A stretch of 64,000 bases of DNA from a virus: IMG/VR virus record IMGVR_UViG_3300020576_007358, one strand, 5' to 3'. The notes beneath the pieces are model-generated. The model ran no database searches. It was not told the origin of the DNA and saw nothing but the letters and a program-made list of their open reading frames with translations. The position numbers were made by a program, and so were the translations under genes. Shown one piece after another: positions 13,970-55,500 of the stretch. The first letter of the stretch is position 1. Every line of letters starts with the position of its first letter.

Positions 13970-14263
13970 ATGGCATTTAGCAGGTATTCTAGATCAGCAG
14001 TGATAGATTACGGTCGTCAATATGGCACTTCGTTTGCCATCAACACGATAAGAGATGGCATCAAGTCAGGCGCCATCAGCACCAAACAACTTCTTGTGAG
14101 AGGCAAAGAAAGGCTAGATACTCTGGCTGGCAGCATCTACGGCGATGGCAGGTACTGGTGGGTTCTAGCCGCGGCATCTAACATCGGTTGGGGCATGCAA
14201 ATCCCGCCTGGAACTGTCATCAACATACCTGATCTTGCAGATATTTCGGCTCTCGTTGGATGA
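13970..14263 (+). CDS. LysM-like tail protein (P2 gpX-like).
   Basis: GDGRYWWVLAAASNIGWGMQIPPGTVINIP fits the LysM consensus. Position after the tape measure matches gpX-like proteins. Confidence 0.45.
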   Translation: MAFSRYSRSAVIDYGRQYGTSFAINTIRDGIKSGAISTKQLLVRGKERLDTLAGSIYGDGRYWWVLAAASNIGWGMQIPPGTVINIPDLADISALVG

Positions 14264-17254: not shown

Positions 17255-18475
17255 TTGTTCAATCTTATGTCAGAGCCATTTTGTATCGATGCGAAGCTGA
17301 TGGGTACTGAGCGCCATCTGCACGTTGATGATGGTTACAAGTGGGTGGAAGAAATCCCGACAGCTGCTTGGCACTTGTCAGGCGAACTTAAACATTCGTC
17401 GAACAGGTGTCTAGACACCGTTATGAAGCTAAATTCAAAAGAAGCAGATCTTTTGCCTCATGAGAAGTACTTGAAGATGATGCAAGTCGTAGCACCAGAT
17501 CATGGACCTCAACAGCTTCCATGGGTTCACCTGATGACGAGCAAAGAACACAGGAGCTACGTCAGAAAACTGATTAATGAAGCGGTGGATACCATAGACA
17601 ACTATTCGAAAGATTATTACGTGTCAACGTGGGTCAACGAGACAGCAGTATTGGATGCTTTGAAACCAGCCATGGTGTCTAGAAAAAGGTATGCCGAGCT
17701 CAAGGCAACTGTGAAGAATAACGTTCACACCATTGAAAGCTTTGAACCAAATCTGTCTGGGTACGCAGCACCAGTGCTTTACGATCGACTTGCTACGCGC
17801 ACTGGCCGCTTGACAGTGAAATCAGGTCCACAGATCTTGACGTTGAAGAGAGAGCACAGGGACTTGGTAGTTCCTTCTACGCCCAACGGTAAGATCATGT
17901 ACGTTGATTTTGCTGCGCTGGAAGCTAGAGTTCTTCTCTACGAGGCTGGTGGTCAGTGTTCAGACGTAGATCTTTACAGGATGATAGCAAGAGACTTGTT
18001 TGGCGACACTGTGTCTAGAGATGCTGTGAAGCTAGCTGTCATCTCTGAGTTGTACGGTTCTGGGAAGCACACGCTTGGAGAGACGTTGCAGATATCTGGT
18101 GATCCTCTCGATAGATTCATAGCAAAGATCAAGGGATTCTTCAAGACGAACGATCTAAAAGCAAGGGTGAAGGATCAGTATGTGAAGCTAGGTTACATAC
18201 GAAACAGGCACGGTCGCATGGTGAAGATCGATGAGCCAATCGACAGGATCTTTGTAAATTCGTACGCGCAATCAACTGGCGTTGATGTTAGCCTCCTTGG
18301 ATTCAACGAGCTGCTGAAGGGTCTTAAGCACACGAAGTGCCGCCCGCTGTTCGTTCTTCACGATGCTCTCATCATAGATGTTCCGGAAGAATCAGTTGAC
18401 GAAGTGATGCAGATCGAATCTGTAAAAGTTCCTGGTTACGTTCAAAACTTTAAGCTAAAGGTTCAGATGATGTGA
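17255..18475 (+). CDS. Family A (Pol I-like) DNA polymerase, polymerase domain only (406 aa, no exonuclease domains).
   Basis: Motif A YVDFAALEARVL, motif B RDAVKLAVISELYGSG, motif C VLHDALIIDV. Confidence 0.55.
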   Translation: MFNLMSEPFCIDAKLMGTERHLHVDDGYKWVEEIPTAAWHLSGELKHSSNRCLDTVMKLNSKEADLLPHEKYLKMMQVVAPDHGPQQLPWVHLMTSKEHRSYVRKLINEAVDTIDNYSKDYYVSTWVNETAVLDALKPAMVSRKRYAELKATVKNNVHTIESFEPNLSGYAAPVLYDRLATRTGRLTVKSGPQILTLKREHRDLVVPSTPNGKIMYVDFAALEARVLLYEAGGQCSDVDLYRMIARDLFGDTVSRDAVKLAVISELYGSGKHTLGETLQISGDPLDRFIAKIKGFFKTNDLKARVKDQYVKLGYIRNRHGRMVKIDEPIDRIFVNSYAQSTGVDVSLLGFNELLKGLKHTKCRPLFVLHDALIIDVPEESVDEVMQIESVKVPGYVQNFKLKVQMM

Positions 18476-18514: not shown

Positions 18515-19144
18515 TTGATCAAGATGAAAGCTCAACTACCTAATCTTACTGCTGAAGAAATTGAACAAAATTGGCTTAGATATGTTTCGCTATTGGGAAA
18601 GATTGGTGATCGATCGACTGCAGCGGTTAATATGGCAGAAGCGCTAGGTGAACGACTGGCACTATGTCCAGCTTCTGCTAAGAAAGACTTTCATAGAGCG
18701 TGCGCTGGAGGTTTGGTAGACCATTCGCTAAGAGTCTTGACAAACGCTCTTACGTACAGCAAAGCTTTCGGTTGGAAGCTTCCTAAAGATTCGTTGATCT
18801 TGTCGTGCTTGTGCCACGATCTTGGTAAAGTAGGTGATGTGGACAACGAATACTACATTGCTGCAGAAGAGTGGCGTGCTCAGAAGCTTGGCGAGCTGTA
18901 CACGTACAACTACGACATGCAGCACATGAGCAATCCAGACAGAAGCATCTTCTTGCTTCAGCACTACGGCGTGAAGTTGACTCAGGATGAGCACCTGGCA
19001 ATCAGGCTCAACGATGGTTACGTCGTTGAAGAGAATAAGACGTACTGCTTGAAAGAACCGCTACTTGCTCACGTGGTCATGACTGCAGATTACGTGTCTA
19101 CGATGGTAGAAAAAGGTATGTTCCCAAGTGAATTACATCTCTGA
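18515..19144 (+). CDS. HD-domain phosphohydrolase.
   Basis: H...LCHDLGK motif. Confidence 0.5.
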   Translation: MIKMKAQLPNLTAEEIEQNWLRYVSLLGKIGDRSTAAVNMAEALGERLALCPASAKKDFHRACAGGLVDHSLRVLTNALTYSKAFGWKLPKDSLILSCLCHDLGKVGDVDNEYYIAAEEWRAQKLGELYTYNYDMQHMSNPDRSIFLLQHYGVKLTQDEHLAIRLNDGYVVEENKTYCLKEPLLAHVVMTADYVSTMVEKGMFPSELHL

Positions 19145-19343: not shown

Positions 19344-19586
19344 TTGGACAACGCCATATTTAAGATCATGAGTAGAGAACTGCTCGTGAGGTATTTGAGG
19401 CTAGCGATAGGTGAGTCAAGGAACGCAAACGTTCCTACGCAGCTCATCGAACCTGATTCTGTGGATGATAACGACAAGAGGAACTTGGACCAAGTTGACG
19501 AATTTTCTGGTGCTGTAGCTGGTTACACAGCACCTCTAGGAATGTCACCAGATAAGCTGGGCAGGAAGAAGAACAAGAAGCGTTAA
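19344..19586 (+). CDS. Hypothetical protein with a basic C-terminal tail.
   Basis: ORF track only. Confidence 0.2.
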   Translation: MDNAIFKIMSRELLVRYLRLAIGESRNANVPTQLIEPDSVDDNDKRNLDQVDEFSGAVAGYTAPLGMSPDKLGRKKNKKR

Positions 19587-19699
19587 CTGAAGTGATCTGA
19601 GGATTTTGAACTTCCCCAGCATGGGAGTGTACTGTAACATTAATCGCATTCTGCGGTTTGAGCAGTACACAATTGCTCGTAAGGAATGAGGAAATAAAC

Positions 19700-20590
19700 A
19701 TGGCGATAAATCTAGAAGCAATTCGTAAGCGCATGGCAGAACTTAACGGGCAGAAGAAGACGTCTTCTGTTCAACTTTGGAAGCCAACGCCGGGCGAGTA
19801 TAAAATTCGTGCAGTTCCTTGGAAGAACTCGACAGATGACCTACCTTTCCTCGAGAGGTGGTTCTACTACATCGGAAATGCACAAGGAATCCTTTCGCCG
19901 AAGCAGTTCGGTAAGCCGGATCCGATCGATGACCTCATCAGGAAGCTGTATTCTTCTGGGAAACCAGAAGATCGTGCGATGGCAAAGCAGCTTCATCCGA
20001 AGATGAGAGCGTACGTTGCTGTCGTTGTCAGGGGTCAGGAAGACAAAGGCGTCCAGGTTTGGAGCATTGGCAAGGGAATCTACAATCGCTTGCTTGGATT
20101 TTTCTCTGACGAAGAGGTGGGAGATTTTCTTGATCCCCTCGTTGGTTTTGACCTGAAGGTGACTATCACTCAGACGCCCGGAAAGCAGTACCCAGATACG
20201 ACCGTTGATGCTGCTCGCAGGCCGTCGAAGTTGATGGAAGATCCTGCACAGATCGAGAAGTTGCTGGCGTCAACGCCAAACCTAGATGACATGTATCGTC
20301 AGAAATCGAAGGAAGAGATCGAGAAGGTCTTGAACGATTGGTTGAACAGCGACGTCGCTGCGTCAGAAGACGGCACCGAGAAGGGTGCTCCTGCTAATGA
20401 TGCGCTCGATGCACTTGTAAATGAAGTTGCAACTGCGGCGAAGGCACAACCTGCTTCTGCGCCGGCAGAAGAACCAAAGAAGCAGAACAAGAAAAAGGCA
20501 GCATCGTCTGACGATGATGATGATGCACCAAAGAAGAAGCAAACGCTTGACGATGCATTCAACGAGCTGATGGAGACATTACGTGGCTAA
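19700..20590 (+). CDS. ssDNA-binding protein, T4 gp32-like.
   Basis: MAELNGQKK N-terminus and an acidic C-terminal tail (SSDDDDDAP...DDAFNEL) typical of gp32. ATG 19700 lies inside ORF 19658..20590. Confidence 0.55.
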   Translation: MAINLEAIRKRMAELNGQKKTSSVQLWKPTPGEYKIRAVPWKNSTDDLPFLERWFYYIGNAQGILSPKQFGKPDPIDDLIRKLYSSGKPEDRAMAKQLHPKMRAYVAVVVRGQEDKGVQVWSIGKGIYNRLLGFFSDEEVGDFLDPLVGFDLKVTITQTPGKQYPDTTVDAARRPSKLMEDPAQIEKLLASTPNLDDMYRQKSKEEIEKVLNDWLNSDVAASEDGTEKGAPANDALDALVNEVATAAKAQPASAPAEEPKKQNKKKAASSDDDDDAPKKKQTLDDAFNELMETLRG

Positions 20591-21815
20591 ACCTGCTAAG
20601 GTTGTTGCGGGTGAAGAACCTGCAAAGAAGAAAGCTGCAAACAGTGACGTTGACGATCTTACGACTGAGATCATCAAGTCCATCAACAAAGAATTCGGTC
20701 AACGAGTAGCGTACAACCTGTCAGTAGACGAAGCGCCTACTAACGTGAAGCGCTGGTTGGACACTGGCTCTATTCAACTGAACTATGCTATCAGAAATGC
20801 TGCTGGAGGTGGTTATCCTGAAGGTCGAGTCATCGAGATTTCTGGACCGCCATCGATAGGAAAATCACACCTAGCGTACCACGCTGCTGCTATCGTCCAG
20901 GGAATGGGTGGACTAGTAGTTTACATCGATACTGAGAATGCAACGCCAGTTGAGAAGCTTAAGAACGTTGGCATCAACGTTGCAAAGAGGTTCGTGTACT
21001 GCGATGCACATTGCACTGAAGAAGTATTTTCGATCATCGAATCAACTATCTTGAAGGCAAAGCAAGTCATGGACAAGAATGTTCCAATTCTTGTCATATG
21101 GGACTCAGTAGCGGCTACGTCACCAAAGGCCGAGCTAGATGGTGATTACGATCAGAACACTGTTGGTTTGCAAGCCAGGGTCATCAGCAAAGGCATGAGA
21201 AAGATCACTGGTGTGATCGGTCAGAATAACGTGACCCTGCTGTGCCTCAACCAACTTCGAACTGCTATCGGCGTGACGCATGGAGATCCAGACATCACTC
21301 CGGGCGGAAAATCGATTCCTTACCATGCAACGCTCAGAATCAGGCTTTCTTCCGGAACGCAAGTTAAGGATAACAGCGGCAATGTCATAGGCATCCATGT
21401 TATCATGACAACAAAGAAGAACAAAGTCGCACCTCCTTTCAGGAAGTACGAATTTGATGTCATCTTTGGCAGAGGAATTTCTGAGCACACTTACATCTTT
21501 GACGAACTTCGATCACACTGTGAAAAGAACGCCGTGACGATCGATCACAAGGACAGCAAAGGAAACGTTGAAAAGCTTCAGATCTCAATTGAAGGCGTCT
21601 CCGCCTGGAGAACGTTGAAGGTTTTCAGCACCGTGACTGGAGAAGTTCTCATCGAGAAGAAGTTCCAAAAGAACAATTTTGATGAGATAATGGCAGATCC
21701 AGTGTATAAGCCATTCATTGACAAAGCTATAGAAGACGCGTACATCATCCATGGTGGTGATCCAGATTCGTCTGGTGAATCACCTTCGGAAGAAGAGGTC
21801 CTCGATGAAAGTTGA
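20583..21815 (+). CDS. UvsX/RecA-family recombinase.
   Basis: Walker A GPPSIGKSHLAYH and RecA-like core. Confidence 0.65.
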   Translation: MAKPAKVVAGEEPAKKKAANSDVDDLTTEIIKSINKEFGQRVAYNLSVDEAPTNVKRWLDTGSIQLNYAIRNAAGGGYPEGRVIEISGPPSIGKSHLAYHAAAIVQGMGGLVVYIDTENATPVEKLKNVGINVAKRFVYCDAHCTEEVFSIIESTILKAKQVMDKNVPILVIWDSVAATSPKAELDGDYDQNTVGLQARVISKGMRKITGVIGQNNVTLLCLNQLRTAIGVTHGDPDITPGGKSIPYHATLRIRLSSGTQVKDNSGNVIGIHVIMTTKKNKVAPPFRKYEFDVIFGRGISEHTYIFDELRSHCEKNAVTIDHKDSKGNVEKLQISIEGVSAWRTLKVFSTVTGEVLIEKKFQKNNFDEIMADPVYKPFIDKAIEDAYIIHGGDPDSSGESPSEEEVLDES

Positions 21816-22326
21816 AGTTCTCTACGATGGCCCAGCCGCCCCAGAGTACAAGACGCTCGGAGCGGCTGGGTGTGATCTGTACGCTGACGAACACCAGATC
21901 GTCCTCGCTGGAAAGACGACGATCATCTCTACGGGACTTCGGCTAGCGATCCCAGAAGGATACGAAGGTCAAGTCAGGTCAAGATCAGGTCTTGCAACGA
22001 AAGGCGTGTTCGTTCTGAACTCTCCTGGTTGCATTGATTGTTTTTCGGGTGATTCGAAGATTAGTACTCTTAATGGAAAAATGAGCATACATGATCTTCG
22101 AATCAATGATCATATTCATTCATTCAATGAATCAACGCATGAAATAGAAAGTGATATTGTCACTGCCATTGTTGATGTGGGCGTAAGAGATGTTATCATT
22201 TTTCGCCTAGATGATAATACTACAATGTCTTTGACACCTGGAACGCTTGTATATACTAGCGCCGGCTTGAAGAGAGCTGATCAATTGACGTCATCTGATG
22301 AAATACTGGTTGACCATGATAGTTAG
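21805..22326 (+). CDS. dut: dUTPase N-terminal piece (motifs 1-3, ...VLNSPGCID) fused to an intein N-half (starts CFSGDSKIS at 22039) and ending in a stop.
   Basis: dUTPase motifs AGCDLY, RSG and NSPG.ID. Intein block A at C+1. ATG 21805 overlaps the RecA stop. Confidence 0.6.
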   Translation: MKVEVLYDGPAAPEYKTLGAAGCDLYADEHQIVLAGKTTIISTGLRLAIPEGYEGQVRSRSGLATKGVFVLNSPGCIDCFSGDSKISTLNGKMSIHDLRINDHIHSFNESTHEIESDIVTAIVDVGVRDVIIFRLDDNTTMSLTPGTLVYTSAGLKRADQLTSSDEILVDHDS

Positions 22327-22331
22327 TTATC

Positions 22332-23267
22332 ATGGTCAAATGTTTGATATGCAACGTTGAAAAACCCTATTCTATCGTTGAACATCTACGTTGTAAGCAC
22401 AAATTGTCAGTTGAAGCTTATCGTAAACAATTTGCCAACGCAGAAGTGAAATCTGCGTTGGCAATTGAAGCCATTTCTAAGCAACATAAGCTTGTTTGGC
22501 AAGATGAATCATACAAGCAAAAGATGCGTGCGTCTCGACAACGCACGCATCGTACAGATGAATTTCGTAAAAAACAATCTGATATCATTAAAAGTACATA
22601 CGCCCATGGGCATAGAACTTGGAATGATGGTCTGACAAAAGATTCGGATGAAAGACTGTCTTTGATTGGAAAAAAGAATTCAGAACATTTGACAGGCAGA
22701 ACAAAAGATACACATGATTATCTTAAAGGAAAAAGTGTTTTCATGAAGAAATTTCATGAGGATAATCCCGGTGTCTTTGTTCATAATAGAATTAATTGGT
22801 CAGAAGAACGAATAAAAGAATGGAAGGAAAAAATAAGTTCATCAGTTTGTGAAGCTTACCATGATGGCAGATGTGGCAGTTCATATCGATATATCAAAGG
22901 TTGGTTCGAAACGAAAGATTCTAAAAGAGAACATTATGATTCATCATGGGAACTTTCTTTGATGGAATTCTTGGAATCATTGAATGTTACGTGGACAAAA
23001 GCACATCGAATTACGATTGATTATCAATTTAATGGTAATAGAAGATACATTCCTGATTTTTTGATATCTTGGCGTGGTAAAAATTTGCTGCTTGAATTGA
23101 AGGGTTATGTTTCATCACAGATTGAACTTGATGAAAAAACTCAAGCAGCTAAAATTTGGTCAGAGAAACAAAACATGTGTTTTTCACTGTGTCATAGCGT
23201 AAACGAAGCAAAAGATGTCATTTGTAAATTTATGACGGAGGCAAATGAAACTAGCAAAAATTGTTAA
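22332..23267 (+). CDS. Free-standing homing endonuclease (zinc finger, [10 protein letters not shown] repeats, Vsr-like core) lying between the two dUTPase/intein pieces.
   Basis: ORF track. Same family as the other Vsr-like HEs. Confidence 0.55.
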
Positions 23268-23700
23268 TATTGAGCGTTCTACTGATCGTTGTTATGATTT
23301 GACCGTTGAAAACAATCATAATTTTTTCTGTAATGATGTTCTGATTCATAACTGTGATTACAGAGGCGTTGTGAAAGTCATATTGCACAACGTAGGGTCA
23401 TCGACATTTACTGTCAACAAAGGAGATAGGATAGCCCAGCTTGTAATTACGCCGATTATTCGAGCGTCATTCTCGCACTCTCGTGAGCTGCCAGAAACCG
23501 CTCGTGGAGCCGGTGGGTTTGGTTCAACTGGTACGTTAACTGATCTGTACTTGGGTCTTTGCGTTGATTACAGTTCAACATCTCTACATAAGGTGTTAAA
23601 TGGACGAAAAATCAACGCAAAGACCCATTTTGATTGTGGATTCTCTCAATCTCTTCGTGCGTTCATACGTTGCGTTTCCTGCAATGAACGTCAATGGTGA
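23245..23700 (+). CDS. dut: Intein C-half (36 aa, ...[13 protein letters not shown]) fused to the dUTPase C-terminal piece (CDYRGVV...[10 protein letters not shown]).
   Basis: Intein blocks F/G end in HN followed by Cys+1. dUTPase motifs 3 (tail), 4 and 5 follow. Start overlaps the HE stop. Confidence 0.6.
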
Positions 23701-24583
23701 AGCCACTGGAGGGTGCGTTGGATTCTTGAAAACGCTTCGCAAGCTTGTCAATGAGTATTCACCATCAGCTGTATACCTTGCATGGGAAGGTGGTGGATCG
23801 CAGAGAAGAAGAGCTCTGTTCTCAGAATACAAGATGAATCGACGACCAGAGAAGTTGAATCGATTCTATGAAGATGATTTGCCTGACTCTGAAGAGAATC
23901 GCCAACACCAGTTGATAGTGCTGCTGGGTTTGATGAAGTTCATCCCAGCGTGTCAACTTTACGTCTCTGATTGTGAAGGCGATGATCTTGTAGCTTACCT
24001 TGCGCGGCAAAAGTTTAAGAACGTTGACAAGATCATCGCTTCATCTGACAAAGATATGTACCAGCTCCTTGATGAGCGGACGAAGATTTACAGTTTTCAC
24101 AAGAAGATCATAATCACTGGTGATGACATCTTGAATGAGTACAAGATCAAGCCGGGAAACTTTGGTCTAGCGAAAGCGCTGTGCGGTGATCCGTCTGACA
24201 ACATCCCTGGATTGAAGGGATTTGGGTTCAAGACAGCATCTCGCGTTCTTCCATTCTTGCAGCTTCAAGATGACATTCTTGTCAGCGATGTGATCGACTA
24301 CTGCAATTCACACTATGACGAGTCAAAGTTGTACCAACGTGTTGTCGAGAATCAGGATCTTTTGAAGAGAAATTGGCGCCTTGTTCATCTAGATGGCAGC
24401 ATGCTGTCCGCTGCTCAGGCTTCCAAAGTAGATCAATTGATCAGTACATACGTCCCACGTAGTGATAGGATCAGCTTTACTCGAGGGCTTATGAAGGAAG
24501 GCATCAATGATTTTGATGTTGCTGATTTCTTCATGACCTTCAACTGCATCGAGAACGTGGAAAATAGGACTAAAGAAAAATGA
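23600..24583 (+). CDS. RNase H / 5'-3' exonuclease (FEN family).
   Basis: [17 protein letters not shown]-terminus and acidic clusters typical of T4 RNase H and Pol I 5'-nuclease. Confidence 0.6.
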
Positions 24584-25368
24584 ACGATGACATCAAGCCG
24601 ACAACGCAAGCTTCATTCGCACAGTATGGAAAGTCCTTCCAAGAAAAGCTGTGCCAAGCGCTGCTCGTTGACAAGCAGTTTGCTGAGCAGATGCTGGAGG
24701 TCTTTAACGTAACGTACCTAGAGCCAAAATACTTGGTGTTTCTTGCTGAACGTTATTTTTCGTACGCTCAGAAGTACAAGGTGTTTCCAACGATGCAGTT
24801 GCTCATCACGATCATCAGAGACGAGCTAAAGATTGGAACTGACGTTGTCATCAGAGATCAGATAGTAGATTACTTGCAACGCATGCGCTCTAATCCTGAC
24901 GTTGGAGATCTTCAGTACGTCAAGGAAAAGGCGCTAGATTTCTGCAGGAAGCAAGCGTTGCGCAGCGCTCTTGAAGAAGCGGTTGATCAGATACAGGCAG
25001 AGAAGTATGAATCGATCGTTGAAGGCATCAAGAAAGCAGTGATGGTCGGAACTGCTCCGCAGTTGGGTCATGACTTCTTTGCCGATTACGAGAGTCGCTT
25101 CACCAAGCTGTCGAGGAATGCAATTGCTACAGGTCTTCCAGAGCTAGATAAGAAAGACATCTTGAACGGTGGGTTGGGATCAGGTGAGCTAGGTTGCGTT
25201 GTTGGTGCGACTGGAACAGGAAAGTGTGTACATCGTGATACTTACATTCAGGTAAAATATACTGGAGTGAGAATTGATGGAAAACTATACAAGCCTTGGG
25301 ATCGAATTGCAACAAGGCGTGGAATCATCTTTGCTAGAGACGTCGTCGAATCAGATGAACTTGAGTGA
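24580..25368 (+). CDS. DnaB/gp41-like replicative helicase N-terminal piece, ending in P-loop GATGTGK, followed by an intein N-half (CVHRDTYIQ..., 47 aa) and a stop.
   Basis: Walker A is interrupted exactly at the GK|S position by Cys+1, the classic DnaB P-loop intein site. Confidence 0.6.
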   Translation: MNDDIKPTTQASFAQYGKSFQEKLCQALLVDKQFAEQMLEVFNVTYLEPKYLVFLAERYFSYAQKYKVFPTMQLLITIIRDELKIGTDVVIRDQIVDYLQRMRSNPDVGDLQYVKEKALDFCRKQALRSALEEAVDQIQAEKYESIVEGIKKAVMVGTAPQLGHDFFADYESRFTKLSRNAIATGLPELDKKDILNGGLGSGELGCVVGATGTGKCVHRDTYIQVKYTGVRIDGKLYKPWDRIATRRGIIFARDVVESDELE

Positions 25369-26458
25369 TAAATTCAAGTGTCAATATTGTTGTCAGCAAT
25401 ACAACAATCAATCTGGGTTGATCACGCATATTCGACGCAAGCATTCAACAACATTCACAGATTACAAGTTGAAATTTTCTCATCTTTACAAAGTTGAAAA
25501 AAGAGAAAAAAAACTTAGTCTAAATGAACTAGCTAGACGTAAACGTGATGAAAAAGCTATTGATGATGGACTTCAAGTTTTGAAGTGTGAAATTTGCAAT
25601 TATGAATCTTACTACAGTTTGATATCGCACATCGTAAGAAAACACGGTGTGGCTATGAATGAATATCGATCAAATTTCCCTTCAGCAGTTGTACAGCAAG
25701 TTACATCAGATGTCAGAGAAAAAAATAGAAAGAATGCAACGTTGCATCTTTCAGATCCTATCAAGAAAGCGAATTTTCTAAAACGAAGATCTTTTCCTTC
25801 TGAGATGAAACACTGGATCAATAAGGGATTTTCATCAGACGAAGCAAAGAAAAAAGTTGCTGAATTTCAACAAGCGATTGCGCTTAAAGGTAATAATGAA
25901 AAAACGAAGGCAAAACAGTCAATTAGAAATTCTGGTCAAAATAACCCAATGTCATTGACATCAATTTCGAAACGTCTTAACGTTTCGAAGGATGACGCAA
26001 GCAAATTGACACCGTGTTATGGAAGATCAGGCATCAAACATCCGATGTTTGGTAAAAAACACAGTATTGAAGCTTTGAACAAAATTGGTCAACACATTAA
26101 TCACACCGGACGTTCGAAAATCGAACACGAAATGTCTGATCTGATCATTTCATTGTATGGTGGTCTAAAGAACGTAGGAGTAAATGGTTGGTGCTGTGAT
26201 TACGTTAATCACGATCGTCAGATTATAGTTGAATTTTTTGGTGATTATTGGCATCACAATCCGGAAAAATATGATAGAAATTTTGTCAACAACTTTACTA
26301 AACGTTCATCTGAAGAAGTTTGGTTGCGTGATGCACGCAAATTGAATGAACTTAGAGAGAGCGGCTTTAACGTTGTTGTGATATGGGAATCTGATTGGCG
26401 AAACAAAAAAGAAGACAGTTTGAACAGGATAAAAGATGCTTTCAATAGAACATTGTGA
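25355..26458 (+). CDS. Free-standing homing endonuclease (C2H2 zinc fingers, Vsr-like core EFFGDYWH...VVIWESDW) between the helicase pieces.
   Basis: ORF 25274..26458. ATG 25355 (MNLSDKFKCQYC) overlaps the intein-N stop. Confidence 0.55.
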   Translation: MNLSDKFKCQYCCQQYNNQSGLITHIRRKHSTTFTDYKLKFSHLYKVEKREKKLSLNELARRKRDEKAIDDGLQVLKCEICNYESYYSLISHIVRKHGVAMNEYRSNFPSAVVQQVTSDVREKNRKNATLHLSDPIKKANFLKRRSFPSEMKHWINKGFSSDEAKKKVAEFQQAIALKGNNEKTKAKQSIRNSGQNNPMSLTSISKRLNVSKDDASKLTPCYGRSGIKHPMFGKKHSIEALNKIGQHINHTGRSKIEHEMSDLIISLYGGLKNVGVNGWCCDYVNHDRQIIVEFFGDYWHHNPEKYDRNFVNNFTKRSSEEVWLRDARKLNELRESGFNVVVIWESDWRNKKEDSLNRIKDAFNRTL

Positions 26459-27677
26459 AGTTGTTGAAGTTGTTAAAGTTGGTGATCTGTTTGCTAGCAT
26501 TGGATTTAATGATGATTCAGTTGCTGATGATTCTGGTGATTCATTTATTCCGAATGAATGGTCAATAGAAGTCAGATCACTTGACACTTTCTATCCTGTA
26601 GATGGTTTTCGTTGGACAAAACCAGAGCAGCAGGTGAAATTGACATATGGCAAAGAATCTTCTTTGCAGTGTTCACCAGAACACATTGTTTTGAAGTATT
26701 CTTCTACAGAAACTCAATGGACAAAAGTTAGTGATCTATCGCCTGGTGATGACATTGTCACTGTTAATGGCATATGCATGATTGATTCGATTGATAATCT
26801 AGAGGAACTTGATCGTCTTTGCGACCTTCAAGTATCAATTGCACATTCTTACTATGCTGACGGTGTGTTGTCACATAATTCTCACTTTCTTACGTTCTTG
26901 GGTGCAATGGCGCTGAGGAACAACGTTGATGTTCTTCACTACACGTTTGAGCTATCAGAGACTCAAGTTGGTATCAGGTATGATTCTAACTTGTGTGACA
27001 TTGATTCGAATGCTGTCATTGACAGCAAGGATCGTATTCTTACTAAGTACGCAGAGCAAAAGCTGGGACGCTTGATCATCAAGTACTTTCCGACGAACAC
27101 AGCTAGCATCTACACGCTTCGAAGTCACATCGAGCGCCTCGGAACGAAGGGTTTCAGGCCAGGATTGATTATCATCGACTATGCTGACATCATGAGATCA
27201 ACTCGTCAGTTCGATTCTTTGAGACACGAGCTTAAGCTCGTTTACGAAGAACTAAGAGGAATGGCTGGTGAGCTAGGAATCCCAGTGTGGACAGCGAGCC
27301 AGAGCAACAAAGAGGGAGCGACAAGCGAGATCATCGACATGGGAAACATGTCTGAAGCTTACGGCAAAGCGATGATCGCTGACGTGATCGTCAGCATCTC
27401 TAGGCGTGCTCACGAGAAGTCAACGGGTCAAGGTCGATTGTACGTTGCAAAGAATCGCGCCGGGCGCGATGGTCTTGTTTATCCGTTGCACATTGACACC
27501 TCAAAGAGCAACTTTGAGATCTTGGGTGGACCGGGTTCTTTGGACGTCGCCATGAAGGAGAACGAATCTGACATCAAGAAAGTTCTTCGTTCAAAGTGGA
27601 ACGAGATGAGAAATGATCCAATCATCGGCGAAAATCTAAAAAGAGGAAGCGATTCTAGCGATGACACGGGTTCTTGA
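26436..27677 (+). CDS. Intein C-part (about 148 aa with blocks B, F, G; ...VLSHN) fused to the helicase C-terminal piece (SHFLTFLGAMAL...).
   Basis: HN|S junction at 26880. Helicase motifs follow downstream (IIDYADIM, SQSNKEG, RAGRDG). Confidence 0.6.
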   Translation: MLSIEHCEVVEVVKVGDLFASIGFNDDSVADDSGDSFIPNEWSIEVRSLDTFYPVDGFRWTKPEQQVKLTYGKESSLQCSPEHIVLKYSSTETQWTKVSDLSPGDDIVTVNGICMIDSIDNLEELDRLCDLQVSIAHSYYADGVLSHNSHFLTFLGAMALRNNVDVLHYTFELSETQVGIRYDSNLCDIDSNAVIDSKDRILTKYAEQKLGRLIIKYFPTNTASIYTLRSHIERLGTKGFRPGLIIIDYADIMRSTRQFDSLRHELKLVYEELRGMAGELGIPVWTASQSNKEGATSEIIDMGNMSEAYGKAMIADVIVSISRRAHEKSTGQGRLYVAKNRAGRDGLVYPLHIDTSKSNFEILGGPGSLDVAMKENESDIKKVLRSKWNEMRNDPIIGENLKRGSDSSDDTGS

Positions 27678-31415: not shown

Positions 31416-31715
31416 ATGGATAACACGGAATACGTAGAATGCAAGTGTGGTTCATTTCCGCACTTGCTTCGTTTTTACGTGGCAGATGATGGATCAGTTG
31501 AAGTAGAGTACCTTCTGAAGGGTTACTTGCCGTGGTATAAGAGAATTTATCACGGCATTCGTTACATTTTGGGCTTTGACGTAGGACAAAATTTGTACGA
31601 TTGTAGCATTCTTGATTGGGACGCTCAGAATAAGATCATAAAGTTGTTCAACGAAGTAGCACATGAGCGCAGAAGAACGTATCTTCTAAATTACGACTAT
31701 GGTGATGGTAAATGA
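31416..31715 (+). CDS. Hypothetical protein.
   Basis: ORF track. Confidence 0.3.
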   Translation: MDNTEYVECKCGSFPHLLRFYVADDGSVEVEYLLKGYLPWYKRIYHGIRYILGFDVGQNLYDCSILDWDAQNKIIKLFNEVAHERRRTYLLNYDYGDGK

Positions 31716-36952: not shown

Positions 36953-37019
36953 AAATTAGTTTGAACATGGGGCGCACAGAAGGTAAAGTAAGCACATCTA
37001 ACGGAGACGGAGAAAGAAA

Positions 37020-37895: not shown

Positions 37896-37922
37896 GGAGG
37901 GGTGGCGGAACTGGCAGACGCA
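37896..37922 (+). tRNA. tRNA-like 5' half 'alpha': acceptor GGAGGGG, then TG, then a type-II-like D-arm GCGG-AACTGGCAGA-CGC. Followed by ACTGGTGA.
   Basis: D-arm is nearly identical to bacterial tRNA-Leu/Ser (GGCGGAAUUGGUAGACGC). Cognate 3' half is 57 nt upstream. Confidence 0.4.
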
Positions 37923-38026
37923 CTGGTGATCTCAACTCAACCTGAAGCTATCGCAACAGGTTCACTTAGTCGATAAAGGATGCAAGGATCAATCAATCGT
38001 TCACCGGCTGAATATTGCGAACTAGT

Positions 38027-38054
38027 GTGAGTTCAAATCTCACCCGCGCCTCCA
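38027..38054 (+). tRNA. tRNA-like 3' half 'beta': T-arm gtgag-TTCAAAT-ctcac, 3' acceptor ccgcgcc, discriminator t, encoded CCA.
   Basis: Perfect 7/7 complementarity to GGCGCGG at 38088, which lies downstream. Confidence 0.45.
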
Positions 38055-38087
38055 TGTTCCAACAGGAACAGCTGAAGCAGTAAATAA

Positions 38088-38130: not shown

Positions 38131-38203
38131 CTGGTGAACTTAAACGTGTGATCCCTTTCTGTAAAAAATCGACGTCAACACGATAAGTTGACTAACTCTA
38201 GAT

Positions 38204-50732: not shown

Positions 50733-51620
50733 TCACCCTTTGACGGCCTCGGATACCCGAACGAACATTTCGATTTTTGTCGTGAGAATGGTCTTGATGC
50801 TCACGCAATTACTGAGCACGGTAACATGAACAGTTACGCTCATGCTCAACTCGCAGTTGAAGATTGGAATAAAGCAAACCCAAAACTTCCTTTCAAGTAC
50901 ATTCCGGGTTGTGAAATGTACTTTCACCCAAGCTTGAAGCAGTGGGAAGTTGACAAGCTTCGTGCTGAAGAAGCCCTGGTCGATAAGAAAGCAGCAGCGA
51001 AGCTCCTGAAGGAGCAGGAAAAGCTGCAGACAAAGATCATTGCTGTCGTCGATGAAGCGGATGAAACCGAAGACATCGAGATGACCAATGCTCTGACAGT
51101 TGAAAATGAAGACGAGTCAAAGTCAACGAAGCACTTCAATCCCGTCAACCGTCGTCATCACCTTGTTGTTCTGCCAAAGAACCAGCAGGGCTTGCTGTCC
51201 ATTTTCTCTGCGTGCTCGAAAGCGTACATGCAGGGTTTTTACAGATTCCCTCGCATCGACTTGGAGATGCTGAAGGAAGCAGGAAAAGATCGTAACATCG
51301 TTGTCACTTCTGCATGCATTCATCCAGATTCAATTGTGATCACCAATTGTGGTTCAATGAAGATTGTTAATCTAGTTGAACATGTAAAAAATGGCACTGA
51401 AATTTCGGTGTTGTCATATGATCATGACACAAACCAACTTGTTTTTAAGAAAGTTACTTGGGCTGATAAAACAAGAGAACAAGCAAAAATTGTTCGAATT
51501 AAGCTTAAAAATGGTGCAACATTGCGGGTAACGCCTGATCACAAAGTCTATACTAAACGTGGTTGGGTAGAAGCACAAGAACTTCTGAAAACAGATCATA
51601 TACTGTCAATCCACCAATAG
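50733..51620 (+). CDS. dnaE: DnaE (Pol III alpha) PHP-domain N-terminal piece followed by an intein N-half (CIHPDSIVIT...TPDHKVYT, starts 51315) and a stop. The upstream in-frame start region at 50619/50670..50720 is separated from it by TAG (50721) and TAA (50730).
   Basis: SPFDGLGYPNEHF...AITEHGN...GCEMY PHP motifs. Intein blocks A and B. ORF track 50826..51620. Confidence 0.55.
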   Translation, partial: SPFDGLGYPNEHFDFCRENGLDAHAITEHGNMNSYAHAQLAVEDWNKANPKLPFKYIPGCEMYFHPSLKQWEVDKLRAEEALVDKKAAAKLLKEQEKLQTKIIAVVDEADETEDIEMTNALTVENEDESKSTKHFNPVNRRHHLVVLPKNQQGLLSIFSACSKAYMQGFYRFPRIDLEMLKEAGKDRNIVVTSACIHPDSIVITNCGSMKIVNLVEHVKNGTEISVLSYDHDTNQLVFKKVTWADKTREQAKIVRIKLKNGATLRVTPDHKVYTKRGWVEAQELLKTDHILSIHQ

Positions 51621-51636
51621 TTATTGGTGGACAACT

Positions 51637-52596
51637 ATGAGAAAATTTGATTCTAAAAAGAAAGCACTAGCTCGTCAAGAATTTCTTGACTCTCTAACTC
51701 ATGTAGGTCTGACGACGGTTGAATTGAAGCGCCTGGCATCAGACCTACATTATAGTTTGTCTATGATTTATGATCTAATTGTGAGAGATCACAATGATAT
51801 TGTTACACGTTTTCGTTTTTCAAAACGATCAATTGTAAATCTGTTTCATAAACTAGGCATAGTTCATAACAATAAACTTTACTTGAGATTGCCTCAAGAA
51901 GTTAAGTTGCAGTTCAAATATCCTAAGGGAACTTCTCTTGAAGAGATAAAAAAGATCTGTTCACAACAATCTTCAAAAGGTGCTAAGACTACTCATCGTA
52001 TTAGAAAGGCATGGGATGCATACACGCCCAAAAATAATACTGAATATTATCTCAATAAAGGATATTCTCTTGACGAAGCAAATGTTAAATCGTCAGCCTT
52101 TCGAAAAAGTAAGTCTCCATTCTCAAGATCATTTTCGAACTATCAACAGCTTGCTGCTGATGACGTTCTAGAACTAATTCGTGAACTCTCAAGAAATAGA
52201 GGGCTTAAAGGGCTTGTTAGTATGCGTGCTCGCAATTCGAAACTCGAATTGCGAGTTGTATCTGAATTGCTAAACAAAGATATTCATTGTGAAACACAGA
52301 AAATTTTGGGCAAATTTGCATATGATGTTTTTGTACCAAGATTCAATCTGATCATTGAAGTAAATGGAACGTACTGGCACGCAGATCCACGCGTTTATAA
52401 CGCTGATGATCTAATTCAATTTCCGTACGGGCAAGTTAAGGCAAGTGAAAAATGGTCAAAAGATGAGATAAAGTTGGCTTATGCCAGATCAATTGGCTAT
52501 AATGTTTGTGTGTTGTGGGAAGCGGACTTGAAAAAAGAAGGTTACCTTGACGAATTCATCAAATCAATCAATGACAGCTATGCAGATGACAACTGA
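51637..52596 (+). CDS. Free-standing homing endonuclease (Vsr-like core IIEVNGTYWH...VCVLWEADL) between the dnaE pieces.
   Basis: ORF track. Confidence 0.55.
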   Translation: MRKFDSKKKALARQEFLDSLTHVGLTTVELKRLASDLHYSLSMIYDLIVRDHNDIVTRFRFSKRSIVNLFHKLGIVHNNKLYLRLPQEVKLQFKYPKGTSLEEIKKICSQQSSKGAKTTHRIRKAWDAYTPKNNTEYYLNKGYSLDEANVKSSAFRKSKSPFSRSFSNYQQLAADDVLELIRELSRNRGLKGLVSMRARNSKLELRVVSELLNKDIHCETQKILGKFAYDVFVPRFNLIIEVNGTYWHADPRVYNADDLIQFPYGQVKASEKWSKDEIKLAYARSIGYNVCVLWEADLKKEGYLDEFIKSINDSYADDN

Positions 52597-55500
52597 ATTC
52601 GTTGAAATTGACAGCATTTCCATTGACGAAGAAACACCTGACGTATATGACATAACAGTTGAAGATACACATTGTTTTTTTGCTGATGGTTCGCTAGTCC
52701 ATAATTGCATCGGCGGGTTTCCCTCTTGGAGCGTATTCCAAGTGCTTCAGGGAATTTCGTTCGATAATCTCAACCAGTCGCTCCTTGACGACAAGGCTCT
52801 TCTTGATAAGTGCGTTGATGCTGTCGGAAATACGTACGACATGATGGTGTCTGCGGTTGGTGAAGGAAATTACTTCCTCGAGCTGCAGTTCAACCGTCTG
52901 CCGGCGCAGAACCTTGTCAACCGTGCAATCATTGAGTTTGCAACCAGAAATGGTTTGCAAAAACAACTTGTTGTCACTGGAGATGCACACTACTACAATC
53001 CAGACGTCTGGAAGGAGCGTGAGCTCTACAAGAAGTTGGGTTGGATGAACTACCAGACGATCGATCCCAATTCACTTCCAAAATCTCGAGACGAGCTGAA
53101 GTGCGAACTTTACCCAAAGAACGCGCCTCAGATGTGGGATGAGTACTTGAAGTCGAAGGTCGATACGTCTTTTTACGATGATCAGATCATCTGTGATGCA
53201 ATTGAGCGAACCCATGACATCGCGCATCACCTCATTGGTGAGGTTAAACCAGATCGATCGCAAAAGTTTCCAACTGAGCGCCTCATCCCACCAGGTGAGA
53301 AGTCATTCAACCATCTCGTGAAGTTGTGCAAGGATGGGATGGTGAAGCGTGGGCTCGATGGCAAGGATGAATATCTTGATCGTTTGAAAGAAGAGCTCGG
53401 CGTCATCAAGCAGATGAAGAATGCGGATTACTTCATCTCGTACCAAAAGATCATCGAGCTGGCGCGGAAAGTAGTTTTGGTAGGACCTGGGCGAGGCAGT
53501 GGCGCCGGATCTCTTGTTGCGTACGTGCTGTACATCACCGACCTAGATCCGATCAAGTGGGACCTACCTTTCTCTCGATTCCTCTCCGTGCATCGTCAAG
53601 GTGCGCCAGACATTGATAGCGACGTCTCTGACCGCGATAAAGTTCTTGATCAGCTGCGAAATTTCTTTGGTTACGAGAACGTCGTTCCAATCTCGAACTA
53701 CAATGCTTTCAAGGTGAAGAGTCTCTTGAAGGATGTCAGCAAGTTCTATGGCATTCCCTTCGATGAAGTCAACGCCGCGACTAGAACTGTCGAAGACTCT
53801 GTTCGCCGCGCAACGATGAAGGAAGGTGATGACAAGAACCTATTCGTGCTCACGTACGATGAGGGTTTGAAGTACGACAAAGCTTTCTCAGACTTCATTG
53901 CACGGCACCCTGAAGTTGGCGAATCTATGAACGTTCTGTTCAAGCAGAATCGTTCTCTTGGACGTCACGCAGGTGGTGTTCTAATTGCTGACGATCTTCC
54001 AAACAAGATGCCCCTGATCACCAGCAAGGGTGAACCGCAGAGTCCTTGGGTAGAAGGTGTCAACTTCAAACACCTTGAGAAGATCGGAAATTTCATCAAG
54101 TACGACATTCTTGGCCTTGAAACGTTGAGGTTGATCGAAAGAACGATCGAACTGATCCTCATCAAAGAGGGAAATGCAGCACCAACGTTCGATGACATCA
54201 AGACTTGGTATGAAAACAACATGTCACCTGATGTCATCGATCTTGACGATCAGAAGGCATACGAAACTTACTGCGAAGGGCGTTGGGCTGGCGTATTTCA
54301 ATGTACAGGAAAAGGCGCTCAGCAACTTTTCAAGAAGGCTCGGCCAAAGAGCATCATCGATATCGCAGCTTTGACGTCCATTTATCGACCGGGTCCGCTA
54401 GCGGCTCACGTTGACAAGTTGTGGTTGAAGCATGAAGTTGAACCGTACGACTGGGGTCACCCGCTCATCAACTCTACGTTGAAAGAAACACGTGGGTTGC
54501 TGGTGTTCCAAGAGGGCGTCATGGCTCTTGTCAACAAAGTCTCTGGCTTTCCGCTGTCAGAAACTGACGAGGTTCGACGTGCTATCATGAAGCGCAGCAT
54601 CTCAGGCGGTGAAGCTGCGAAGAAGAAGATGAAGGAACTTGAAGACAGCATCGTTGCTGGTGCTGTGAAGAACGGCGTTCCGGAAGCAACTGCTCGCAAG
54701 ATGTATGAAACGATCTGTTTCATGAGCGGTTACGGTTTCAACAAGAGCCATGCAGTTGCTTACGCAATCGACTCGTACTGGTGTGCCTGGTTGCTAACGC
54801 ACTACGAAGAGCAGTGGTTGTGCGCTTATCTCGAGTCCATGTCAAACACCCCAGAGCAGCGAGCAAAAGCTTTCAGCGAAGTGAAGGCTTTGGGCTACCA
54901 GATCGTCCCAATCGATATCAACCAAGCTGCGCTTGGTTGGACTGTGCTGCCCGGCAAGAAATTGATGCCATCGATGACAAGCTGCAAGGGTGTTGGTGAT
55001 TCAGCAGTTGAAGAGATCATGGAAAACAGACCTTACGAGGCAATTGAAGATCTGCTGTGGGATGATGAATTCAACTGGAGGCACAGCAAGTTCAACAAGA
55101 GGGCTCTAGAAGCTCTCATCAAGATTGGTGCTTTTGGTTCAATGAACATCGTTGGTGAAGGAAAGCTGTTCAGCAGCTACAAGCACATGCACGATGTCAT
55201 CGTTGGATCTCACGTTGAGACAGTGACGAAGAAGAGGAAAGGTGAAGTTTCAACGTTCGAAGCTGAGATAGATCATAATGCTCTGATAAAGCGACATCCC
55301 AAGAGCGATCCAACTGAAGGTTTGAAGAACTTCTTTGAGCTTGTTCGAAAGTACGCTGGGCAACCTGATTGGTCTTCTATCGAGAAGGCTCAGAACATGG
55401 TTGAAGTGTTCGGCACTTTGGATGTGACAGCGATGATTGATCCTCGGTTGCTCGATGCCCTAGACGGGAAGGGAGTAGTTCCAGTCGAAGATGTTGAGCT

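Follow-up and report, generated by a model that had tools for sequence, protein, structure and literature searches.

The 64-kb window analysed here (the whole stretch of DNA under study, from a genome of ~310 kb) encodes a compact family A DNA polymerase, termed mini-PolA, in which a polymerase domain with a shortened thumb follows an N-terminal stump of only ~85 aa. With moderate confidence, we regard this protein as an active, primer-extending enzyme that represents the gap-filling half of a disassembled Pol I, working beside a flap endonuclease (FEN) with its own gene and with DnaE (Pol III alpha) as replicase. The features on which this reading draws are compiled in Table 1.

Table 1. Features of mini-PolA and of its partner genes in the 64-kb window.
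Feature	Position	Strand	Basis
mini-PolA gene	17255..18475	+	ORF call; Pfam PF00476 above cut-off
N-terminal domain, aa 1 to ~85	17255..17509	+	four short beta strands, two helices
N-terminal palm segment and shortened thumb, aa ~86–170	17510..17764	+	profile alignment, secondary structure, length comparison
TGR motif, T183 G184 R185	17801..17809	+	invariant, 121/121; aligns to Taq 'TGRL'
Motif A, aa 214–226, 'MYVDFAALEARVL'	17894..17932	+	D218 and E223 invariant, 121/121
Motif B / O-helix, aa 255–268, 'RDAVKLAVISELYG'	18017..18058	+	R255, K259 and Y267 invariant, 121/121
Motif C, aa 366–372, 'FVLHDAL'	18350..18370	+	D370 121/121; H369 117/121
HD-domain phosphohydrolase, directly downstream	18515..19144	+	Pfam HD; after mini-PolA in 81/83 loci
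Conserved small ORF (ORF80, 80 aa), between HD and SSB genes	19344..19586	+	tblastn, same position in 56/83 loci
[quoted passage not shown]
RecA/UvsX-type recombinase	20583..21815	+	Pfam RecA, E 2e-58; synteny
Stand-alone 5'-3' exonuclease / flap endonuclease (FEN)	23600..24583	+	Pfam 5_3_exonuc_N and 5_3_exonuc
DnaB-type replicative helicase, fractured	24580..27677	+	intact 478-aa homolog in L001
DnaE (Pol III alpha), fractured	50826..56059	+	intein pieces flank endonuclease gene

The first-pass annotation had called a 406-aa ORF at this position, and it is indeed a real gene: comparison with a 98%-identical locus (L004) revealed purifying selection (pN/pS 0.10), and homologs are found throughout a large family. 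Translation from the TTG at 17255 gives 406 aa and from the ATG at 17267 402 aa; the latter is probably the true start, because P0001, its twin in the database, and most homologs begin at the methionine that is residue 5. Scanning the surroundings of the gene for promoters and terminators returned no signal exceeding chance.

By profile, catalytic motifs and right-hand fold, mini-PolA is a family A DNA polymerase. Pfam DNA_pol_A (PF00476) matches aa 177–392 with 45.4 bits (cut-off 34.3), PHROG 17 ('DNA polymerase') matches with E 7e-22, thumb, palm and fingers are all present, and the AF2 model reaches a pLDDT of 91.5 and a pTM of 0.88. The initial description of 'only palm and fingers' thus captured the family A polymerase core but missed the thumb and the N-terminal domain, which is probably vestigial. 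The palm/thumb segment contains helices at 96–116, 120–134, 143–152 and 157–161 and is, in the Taq alignment, ~50 aa shorter than its Taq equivalent; the profile alignments to both Taq and Bst begin within the thumb, at aa 124–125.

Conservation of individual residues was counted over 121 family members. Motifs A, B and C had been correctly recognised at the outset, and their key residues are invariant in this set, apart from H369 (117/121). Alignment also bears out that the catalytic aspartates are intact in this stand-alone, exonuclease-less polymerase, as D218 and D370 are both kept in all 121 members. With respect to Taq, R185 of the TGR motif is the counterpart of R573, the catalytic D218 of D610, the steric-gate E223 of E615, and Q339 (invariant, 121/121) of Q754, while R255, K259, I263 and Y267 align to R659, K663, F667 and Y671, and H369, D370 and A371 to H784, D785 and E786; the Klenow counterparts of R185, Q339, H369 and Y267 are R668, Q849, H881 and Y766, respectively. 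The canonical HDE in motif C and the Phe, Tyr or Leu at position B3 are not found in mini-PolA: B3 (I263) is Ile in 119/121 members, and the motif C Glu is replaced by Ala (A371) in 106/121, with Glu present in 6/121. Since both positions vary between subfamilies, they are not strictly defining for family A; as Ala and Ile are atypical of characterised PolAs at these sites, however, the activity of mini-PolA could be low or altered.

A survey from 2023 distinguished 19 PolA clusters, for which it mentions only Phe, Tyr or Leu at B3, and the word 'isoleucine' does not occur in it (Czernecki 2023, PMC10201439). With Ile at B3 and HDA instead of HDE in motif C, mini-PolA fits, as far as its sequence tells, none of these 19 subfamilies. 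The best matches in a profile search of the PDB were Bst (46 bits) and Taq (44), followed by Pol nu; T7 DNAP was not reached at E 0.01. Among the closest known counterparts is the catalytic core of bacterial Pol I (Klenow/Klentaq/Bst): mini-PolA shares with it the TGR motif, motifs A, B, 6 and C, both catalytic aspartates, the steric-gate Glu, and the Arg/Lys/Tyr of the O-helix, and the 5' nuclease domain of Pol I has a homolog in the separately encoded FEN of the phage. In contrast to bacterial Pol I, the mini-PolA polypeptide lacks the 5'-3' and 3'-5' exonuclease(-like) domains and retains just the stump, its thumb is ~50 aa and its fingers and palm are ~34 aa shorter, B3 is Ile rather than Phe, and HDA takes the place of HDE in motif C. 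The NCBIfam Pol I models (TIGR00593 / NF004397) yield 22–24 bits against cut-offs of 600–720. An ortholog of bacterial Pol I (PolA1) was therefore rejected, as mini-PolA scores far below the equivalog cut-off and has no exonuclease Pfam match, and FEN is separate.

Within the N-terminal domain, residues C10, D12, G17, T18, W30, P35, W39, G43, C52 and D54 are conserved, and DEDD motifs are missing from the entire ~85 aa. The stump probably represents what remains of a 3'-5' exonuclease (RNase H-like) fold and is, judged by its motifs, incapable of proofreading. The earlier statement that the ORF contains neither a 3'-5' nor a 5'-3' exonuclease domain agrees with the Pfam search, which found no exonuclease match. 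Nor did this search find any intein/Hint or Intein_splicing match in the ORF, although it does detect intein/Hint pieces in the dUTPase, DnaB and DnaE genes of the window; the absence of intein remnants, likewise proposed before, is further borne out by homologs that are ~400 aa long and collinear. An intein-fractured mini-PolA was accordingly rejected, as no Hint signal occurs in or near the ORF and the protein is full-length. The first-pass annotation had considered that an adjacent N-terminal exonuclease piece together with intein halves would make this a fourth fractured gene; because neither an intein nor an adjacent exonuclease gene was found, mini-PolA is not a fractured gene. Its flanking genes are the same independent genes across 83 loci. 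The upstream gene (984 aa) follows a tape-measure gene and a baseplate-wedge gene, and its product has no Pfam, PHROG or GenBank-phage match; as a putative exonuclease piece it was rejected, since it carries no exonuclease signature and sits in the tail/baseplate block.

For exonucleases and primases, all plus-strand ORFs of at least 120 aa, two minus-strand ORFs and some shorter ones were scanned with Pfam, PHROGs or NCBIfam, and the range examined comprised the window plus 10 kb on each side. The suggested search for an exonuclease ORF elsewhere led to FEN, which had gone unmentioned, but to no DEDD exonuclease among the scanned ORFs of the window. Three proteins of the window without assigned function had no match in the PDB. 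Neither a DnaG/Toprim nor an AEP primase was detected in the window or 10 kb past either end. Of the two 10-kb flanks, one carries genes of nucleotide metabolism and the other tail genes. Beyond the window and these flanks, the genome may encode further polymerases, a primase or a proofreader with its own gene.

The 83 related loci, which span 40–98% identity, exhibit a fixed order of tail module, mini-PolA, HD hydrolase, SSB, RecA, FEN, DnaB and RNR, and in each of them mini-PolA opens the replication module. FEN is a homolog of the N-terminal domain found in bacterial Pol I and lies downstream of mini-PolA in 60 loci, including every locus that extends far enough to contain it. The mini-PolA gene adjoins the HD gene, with FEN 5 kb off; since synteny within this one lineage extends over the entire region, such adjacency gives mini-PolA no specific functional link. 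DnaB is split into an N part (24580–25368), an endonuclease gene (25274–26458) and a C-intein with DnaB_C (26436–27677). The Pol III alpha noted previously in the same window is present as an intein-fractured gene as well, with PHP and N-intein at 50826–51620, an endonuclease gene at 51637–52596, and C-intein plus polymerase core at 52547–56059. The dUTPase of the window is likewise intein-fractured. DnaE, full-length with PHP, fingers and HhH domains, is presumed to be the phage replicase, and it shares contigs with mini-PolA in four large relatives. Pol III alpha, PolA and FEN form the ordinary bacterial set. The co-occurrence of two polymerase families in one phage, which the first-pass annotation had deemed unusual, is therefore real but not unusual, because the pairing is ordinary in bacteria and universal in this phage lineage; the unusual part is the PolA architecture.

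At least 557 clusters (50% identity, E<=1e-30) uniformly share this architecture, which is ancient and does not reflect a recent split; the best 150 of them are all ~400 aa long. Mini-PolA belongs to the core genes of a diverse lineage of large (jumbo) phages that is uncultivated and has contigs of up to 369 kb, and the family was seen only in large phage contigs of this one lineage. Examples of the lineage are IMGVR_UViG_3300005529_000001 (369 kb), IMGVR_UViG_3300036772_000425 (340 kb) and ENA ERZ19038104 scaffold_26 (341 kb). The lineage is represented in metagenomes of marine and other origin. A megablast search with 10 kb found no match among GenBank phages, tblastn of mini-PolA against GenBank phages gave only four remote matches (full-length PolAs or an unannotated 599-aa protein), cellular or prophage copies were not found in 185,579 GTDB genomes, and BFVD contained no protein with this architecture. 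Mini-PolA is the least conserved and fastest-evolving protein of the replication module, with a median identity of 44% as compared to 56 for HD, 59 for FEN, 60 for RNR, 65 for SSB, 68–70 for DnaB, 69 for RecA and 64–74 for DnaE. The label 'replicative-type' that had been given to this PolA does not suit a protein with such a rate, a short thumb and no proofreading.

According to the explanation we favour, the compact domain behind the stump (short thumb, palm and fingers) would be a DNA-templated, primer-extending polymerase that performs short, distributive gap filling and replaces Okazaki primers together with FEN acting in trans. It may also extend 3' ends in recombination and repair intermediates produced by RecA and SSB, with bulk synthesis left to DnaE; the lineage would replicate with its own DnaE, DnaB, SSB and RecA. 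Catalysis, low processivity and the way in which mini-PolA shares the work with DnaE and FEN are inferred. DnaE-based replisomes depend on a PolA-type polymerase together with a FEN to replace primers, and a stand-alone protein can provide the 5'-3' nuclease (PMC12926913). E. coli Pol I with a truncated thumb is active with reduced processivity, according to work cited in PMC10061031. For their stability, PolAs reportedly require an exonuclease domain, even if it is inactive (PMC10201439), and a so far unseen partner of mini-PolA may therefore be required. Repair, translesion synthesis and priming-extension are all plausible candidate roles.

Unlikely, yet the most probable of the alternatives, is a specialised repair or translesion polymerase without any role in lagging-strand maturation, which would bypass lesions or fill recombination intermediates with RecA and SSB, in functional analogy to Pol theta/nu or the actinobacterial APEX PolAs. 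Pol theta, Pol nu and the actinobacterial APEX 1/2 are, like mini-PolA, non-proofreading A-family enzymes that exist beside another main replicase, and exonuclease-inactive bacterial PolAs have been tied to DNA repair (PMC10201439). The missing proofreading domain, the location in one block with SSB and RecA, and the odd periphery of the active site (Ile at B3, HDA in motif C) are consistent with such a function. Pol theta, Pol nu and APEX 1/2, however, keep a full-size inactive exonuclease-like domain, which mini-PolA does not, and Pol theta carries large insertions or a helicase fusion, neither of which is found here; a 400-aa protein is too small for insertions of this type. Moreover, the minor-groove and fidelity residues are canonical and invariant (R185, Q339, Y267 and E223, as well as H369 with 117/121). 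In any case, the repair reading overlaps with the gap-filling function that we favour, and the sequence cannot cleanly separate the two.

Another scenario, which we consider distinctly unlikely, is that the stump is a docking site for a partner conferring a non-canonical activity, namely de novo priming with SSB or ORF80, or proofreading in trans by the HD protein. The first variant is modelled on the PolA-SSB primases (Bebel 2020; Rice 2023, PMC10061031): mini-PolA would be the catalytic subunit of a primase like SCCmec CcPol-MP, with the stump binding a single-strand-binding partner and the complex beginning chains de novo for a DnaB/DnaE replisome. As in mini-PolA, the A-family polymerase domain of CcPol is complete with intact catalytic residues, follows a fragment of the 3'-5' exonuclease domain and has a shortened thumb, and the replicon, a mobile one, also encodes a helicase and an SSB. 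PolA primases have reportedly arisen repeatedly by N-terminal truncations (PMC10061031; PMC10201439), the SSB gene and ORF80 lie just downstream with DnaB in the same module, and the searched range holds no DnaG/Toprim or AEP primase. We nevertheless judge a primase to be quite improbable. [quoted passage not shown] Furthermore, relatives of CcPol reside in mobile elements of Bacillota, in contrast to the mini-PolA family, which has no relative in the GTDB genomes searched. The searches covered about a quarter of the genome, and a conventional primase may exist in the other ~75%.

Equally improbable in our estimate is that mini-PolA is one half of a split PolA, with proofreading provided in trans by an unrecognised exonuclease gene or by the HD protein. 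Split exo/pol PolAs do occur in T7-type cyanophages such as S-SBP1 (Czernecki 2023, PMC10201439), whose separate polymerase protein also lacks the proofreading domain; there, however, the neighbouring gene encodes the exonuclease domain, both products together restore an ordinary T7-type enzyme, and position B3 is occupied by Tyr. For mini-PolA, no such exonuclease gene could be detected next to it or elsewhere in the 64 kb, and an S-SBP1-like split T7 PolA was rejected because the neighbours are not exonucleases, B3 is Ile, and T7 DNAP is absent from the profile matches. An unrecognised exonuclease would meet the stability requirement reported for PolAs, but the window yielded no DEDD exonuclease and the upstream gene, in its tail/baseplate block, shows no exonuclease signature. 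The HD gene follows mini-PolA in 81/83 loci, an adjacency that is uninformative given the synteny of the entire region. The only NCBIfam similarities of the HD protein are to nuclease-type HD proteins (MobH, E 4e-4; Cas3'', 2e-3; the 3'-5' exoribonuclease YhaM, 0.05); all are weak and far under the curated cut-offs, and no sequence homolog of the HD protein was found in the PDB.

Lbab1, an SPO1-like Lactobacillus phage, has a full-length replicase PolA in a similar PolA, SSB, RecA arrangement, and the position of mini-PolA could therefore reflect a former replicase. That mini-PolA still is the main replicase in this ancestral place at the head of the module in all loci, with DnaE as an accessory or later acquisition (in some jumbo phages, DnaE is regarded as a displacement of host origin, PMC7824862), is the least probable alternative, as mini-PolA lacks proofreading and a processivity insertion, has a truncated thumb and evolves fastest, whereas DnaE is full-length and among the most conserved replication proteins. 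It is implausible that a distributive enzyme without an exonuclease copies a ~300-kb genome.

Few enzymes have been studied and used as much as family A polymerases. In the 2023 survey, the only exceptions to the structural need for an exonuclease domain were the recent exo/pol split of certain T7-like phages and the CcPol primase, which retains three exonuclease helices (PMC10201439). The mini-PolA family comprises natural, ancient and very diverse PolAs with an ~85-aa stump and Ile at the ddNTP-discrimination position. If active, mini-PolA would be near the smallest natural PolA polymerase, would test what the exonuclease domain contributes to stability, and might provide a compact enzyme scaffold as well as a marker gene for this uncultivated lineage of large phages. 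A primase function, if true, would be a second, independent invention of PolA-based priming, here for a DnaB/DnaE replisome and genomes of ~300 kb, while proofreading by the HD protein would constitute a polymerase–nuclease pairing not described for family A. With Pol III alpha, PolA and FEN, each as its own gene, the lineage carries the full set in bacterial style.

By profile, motifs and fold, mini-PolA, the compact polymerase under study, is a family A member: Pfam DNA_pol_A matches residues 177-392 with 45.4 bits (gathering score 34.3; profile positions 112-357 of 381), and the match to PHROG 17 'DNA polymerase' has E 7e-22. Scores with NCBIfam models, however, are 22-24 bits, where the cut-offs for Pol I stand at 600-720, and by the membership tests mini-PolA falls outside Pol I orthologs, split T7-like PolAs and CcPol-MP primases. 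The family, of which no description was found in the literature searched, appears to be a new subfamily of PolA. In the ORF listing, the product counts 406 aa from a TTG; as the database entry identical to it (P0001) starts four residues further in, at 'MSEPF', like most homologs, and an ATG is present at 17267, the true product is probably 402 aa. The first-pass annotation had described a stand-alone polymerase domain without exonuclease or intein, encoded alongside a Pol III alpha. This agrees with Pfam and PHROG searches, which gave no exonuclease or intein family match for the ORF while detecting Hint/intein pieces elsewhere in the window, in the fragments of dUTPase, DnaB and DnaE, the last being the Pol III alpha, present as a fractured gene.

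Residue equivalences were derived from a phmmer alignment to Klentaq and a profile alignment to Bst and Taq, and conservation was counted in an alignment of mini-PolA with 120 homologs (n=121). Motifs A, B and C are present, as had been read from the sequence alone: motif A ('YVDFAALEARVL') supplies the catalytic D218 and the steric gate E223 (Taq D610 and E615), the O-helix ('RDAVKLAVISELYG') carries R255, K259, I263 and Y267 (Taq R659, K663, F667 and Y671), and motif C ('VLHDAL') contains H369, D370 and A371 (Taq H784, D785 and E786), while motif 6 ('NSYAQSTG') corresponds to Taq N750 and Q754 and the TGR motif ('TGRL') to Taq R573. The catalytic Asp residues D218 and D370 are kept in 121/121 sequences, as are E223, R255, K259, Y267, Q339 and T183-G184-R185; H369 is kept in 117/121. 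The family's machinery for templated, dNTP-specific primer extension is thus intact and strictly maintained, and the family would be expected to work like the polymerase domain of Pol I or Klenow. Two departures are family-specific, namely Ile at position 263, or B3 (119/121; Leu in 2/121), and loss of the motif C Glu (the Asp is followed by Ala in 106 of the 121 sequences and by Gly in 7, with Glu in just 6). Position B3 governs ddNTP discrimination and is also used as a clade marker. Across 19 PolA clusters, only Phe, Tyr or Leu are mentioned at this position, and the word 'isoleucine' is absent from the text (PMC10201439).

The structure table for mini-PolA lists, with two values each, Klentaq (23.2; 336), T7 DNAP (21.7; 368), apicoplast Pol (21.1; 352), Klenow (20.6; 364), Pol theta (19.9; 357), Pol nu (18.9; 364) and DpoZ (18.2; 359). 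The profile alignment opens at residue ~124 (Taq ~515), in the thumb helix 'AVLEALREAH', and the thumb stem consists of helices 96-116 and 120-134; by alignment count, the pre-TGR segment is ~50 aa shorter than in Taq, and three segments past motif A are jointly ~34 aa shorter. Mini-PolA is a compacted polymerase domain with a stubby thumb, the tip of which is presumably largely absent. Deletion of the thumb tip of E. coli Pol I, according to work cited in PMC10061031, leaves activity in place and lowers processivity and fidelity. Residues 1 to ~85 form a separate conserved unit of two helices and four short strands (C10, D12, G17, T18, W30, P35, W39, G43, C52 and D54 are at least 90 % conserved); given this unit and the thumb stem, the earlier description of the protein as only palm and fingers was wrong. 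The unit is suggestive, though not proof, of a vestige of the first half of a 3'-5' exonuclease fold. As the unit is too small to contain the Exo II and Exo III motifs and shows no trace of them, proofreading by mini-PolA itself is excluded. In the 2023 reclassification of PolAs, every one of the 19 clusters has an exonuclease domain, active or inactive, which is stated to be a structural need of these enzymes; only two exceptions are described, the S-SBP1-like T7-type phages, with exo and pol as adjacent genes after a recent split, and the CcPols, in which three exonuclease helices persist and bind the MP protein (PMC10201439).

A word-indexed search returned 630 homologs, the best 120 of which share 41-100 % identity and measure 356-481 aa. 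Exhaustive profile search of 1.84 billion representatives gave 557 clusters (50 % identity) at E<=1e-30 and 1015 at E<=1e-10; the best 150 are, obvious fragments excepted, all ~400 aa long and matched end to end. No relatives turned up among 185,579 bacterial and archaeal genomes chosen as species representatives, and nothing in BFVD has this architecture; in GenBank phages there were just four distant matches, which are full-length PolAs or a protein without annotation (including Lbab1 gp152, 1038 aa, and Phlei gp33, 599 aa). Compared with a 98 %-identical locus (L004), 26 synonymous and 9 non-synonymous differences were counted (pN/pS = 0.10); together with the invariant catalytic residues, this excludes a decaying remnant.

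Across 83 related loci from IMG/VR and ENA (mini-PolA identity 40-98 %), gene order does not vary on any contig that extends far enough, with the HD phosphohydrolase directly 3' of mini-PolA in 81, SSB in 77, the 984-aa protein in 75, RecA in 71 and FEN, the stand-alone flap endonuclease, in 60; the upstream genes recur in a remote member from Tara Oceans (278 bits). Contigs bearing mini-PolA reach 341-369 kb, a near-identical protein lies on a 313.8-kb contig, and DnaE relatives are found on four large contigs that also carry mini-PolA. Conserved order, large contigs and shared DnaE thus place mini-PolA among the core genes of a single lineage of large phages, which is diverse and uncultivated. 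Because the whole region is syntenic, adjacency to any one neighbour carries little specific information. In 50,697 GenBank phage records, no match was obtained for 10 kb of the window (megablast) or for the 984-aa tail-module protein (tblastn); the whole lineage is without cultured representative, although numerous contigs from IMG/VR, ENA, Logan and Tara, as long as 369 kb, bear relatives. When the rate of evolution is expressed as median identity to the window protein across loci, mini-PolA has the lowest value among the replication genes (44 %), followed by HD (56 %), FEN (59 %), RNR (60 %), SSB (65 %), the DnaB halves (68-70 %) and RecA (69 %), with DnaE ranging over 64-74 %. An invariant active site on a fast-drifting scaffold fits an accessory enzyme better than a processive replicase.

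Features of the window, with strand where recorded
Feature	Position	Strand	Remark
Endonuclease gene	1891-3552		free-standing
Tape measure	5866-10536		upstream of mini-PolA
Tail tube, baseplate, NUDIX			upstream of mini-PolA
1055-aa protein			upstream of mini-PolA
Baseplate-wedge protein	13970-14263		upstream of mini-PolA
984-aa protein			upstream of mini-PolA
mini-PolA	17255-18475	+	
HD hydrolase	18515-19144		
ORF80	19344-19586		
SSB	19658-20590		
RecA	20583-21815		
dUTPase	21751-23700		fractured
FEN	23600-24583		
DnaB	24580-27677		fractured
RNR large subunit	27738-31118		further downstream, as are ThyX, dTMP kinase and others before DnaE
ThyX, thymidylate (dTMP) kinase	31712-32958		
TnsA-like/dUTPase ORF	33350-34525		
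RNA-repair-type cluster	35999-41213		
Polynucleotide kinase-phosphatase	38283-39263		in cluster
RNA ligase	39559-40344		in cluster
N6/N4 DNA methylase	41210-42037		
Endonuclease gene	43462-43989		free-standing
Endonuclease gene	48966-49694		free-standing
DnaE (Pol III alpha)	50826-56059		fractured: PHP domain + N-intein 50826-51620; endonuclease gene 51637-52596; C-intein + core 52547-56059
Endonuclease gene	59458-60375	-	free-standing
Endonuclease gene	61767-62555		free-standing

Each of the three fractured genes consists of an N-extein plus N-intein (Hint) piece, a free-standing endonuclease gene (TnsA-like, NUMOD3/zinc-finger or PHROG 'homing endonuclease') and a C-intein plus C-extein piece; relatives such as L001 have an intact 478-aa DnaB. 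Other free-standing endonuclease genes are unusually dense (PHROG 'homing endonuclease', HNH, two GIY-YIG and DUF7487/TnsA-like) and spread over structural and replication modules. In a 391-aa ORF, an N-terminal TnsA-like endonuclease domain (with DUF7487) is joined to the last 58 residues of a dimeric-type dUTPase (PF08761); a homing element may have interrupted or fused this gene as well. The RNR large subunit (1126 aa) has RNR domains on residues 20-620 only, leaving ~500 C-terminal aa that might represent an intein, an endonuclease or some other domain. ORF80, an 80-aa ORF that is acidic in the middle and basic in its C-terminal tail, occupies the same position in 56/83 loci and has no family match. 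The RNA-repair-type cluster additionally encodes an RlaP nucleotidyltransferase, DUF7873 and a metallophosphoesterase, and the methylase follows directly. Just past the right window end, locus L095 (11120-13537) adds to ThyX a second gene, of the ThyA family (219 aa), as well as genes for a thymidine kinase and a dCMP deaminase, and two dUTPase types and a NUDIX protein occur in the same phage. So full a set of pyrimidine genes may be the sign of a modified base; if true, this would bear on polymerase specificity.

Functional statements on mini-PolA draw on sequence, predicted structure and gene context, from which it is very probably an active DNA polymerase. In bacteria, Pol III alpha replicates while RNA primers are replaced by PolA and a FEN-type 5' nuclease; of these, the nuclease is the one required near-universally, and it can be a stand-alone protein (PMC12926913). 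Here, a compact-fold A-family polymerase with an intact active site and no proofreading domain occurs together with FEN as a gene of its own, with a full DnaE that includes a PHP domain, and with DnaB, SSB and RecA in one module; distributive gap filling and 3'-end extension in Okazaki maturation and D-loop/repair synthesis is, on balance, the probable role. A dedicated repair or translesion enzyme, which overlaps with this explanation, seems rather unlikely, the minor-groove and steric-gate residues being fully canonical and thus arguing against a sloppy active site. There is a slim chance of a CcPol-like PolA-SSB primase: a truncated exonuclease domain and a short thumb are common to both, and no primase was found in the ~84 kb searched (the 64 kb window plus 20 kb) of the ~310-kb genome, but the defining order PolA, small OB-fold SSB, helicase is not seen. 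That proofreading comes in trans, from an unseen exonuclease or the adjacent HD protein, is just as doubtful; the latter has only weak NCBIfam similarities, to nuclease-type HD proteins (MobH relaxase, Cas3'', YhaM 3'-5' exoribonuclease), and no sequence homolog in the PDB, and could be a dNTPase or nuclease partner. Least probable is the main replicase: the PolA, SSB, RecA order is reminiscent of SPO1-like phages, but the missing proofreading, the short thumb and the fast evolution speak against this role.

Under the preferred gap-filling role, this phage lineage would have the bacterial Pol III alpha, PolA and FEN functions on three genes. Mini-PolA, as a distributive polymerase that fills gaps and extends 3' ends, would then act together with FEN in Okazaki maturation and with RecA and SSB in D-loop or repair synthesis.
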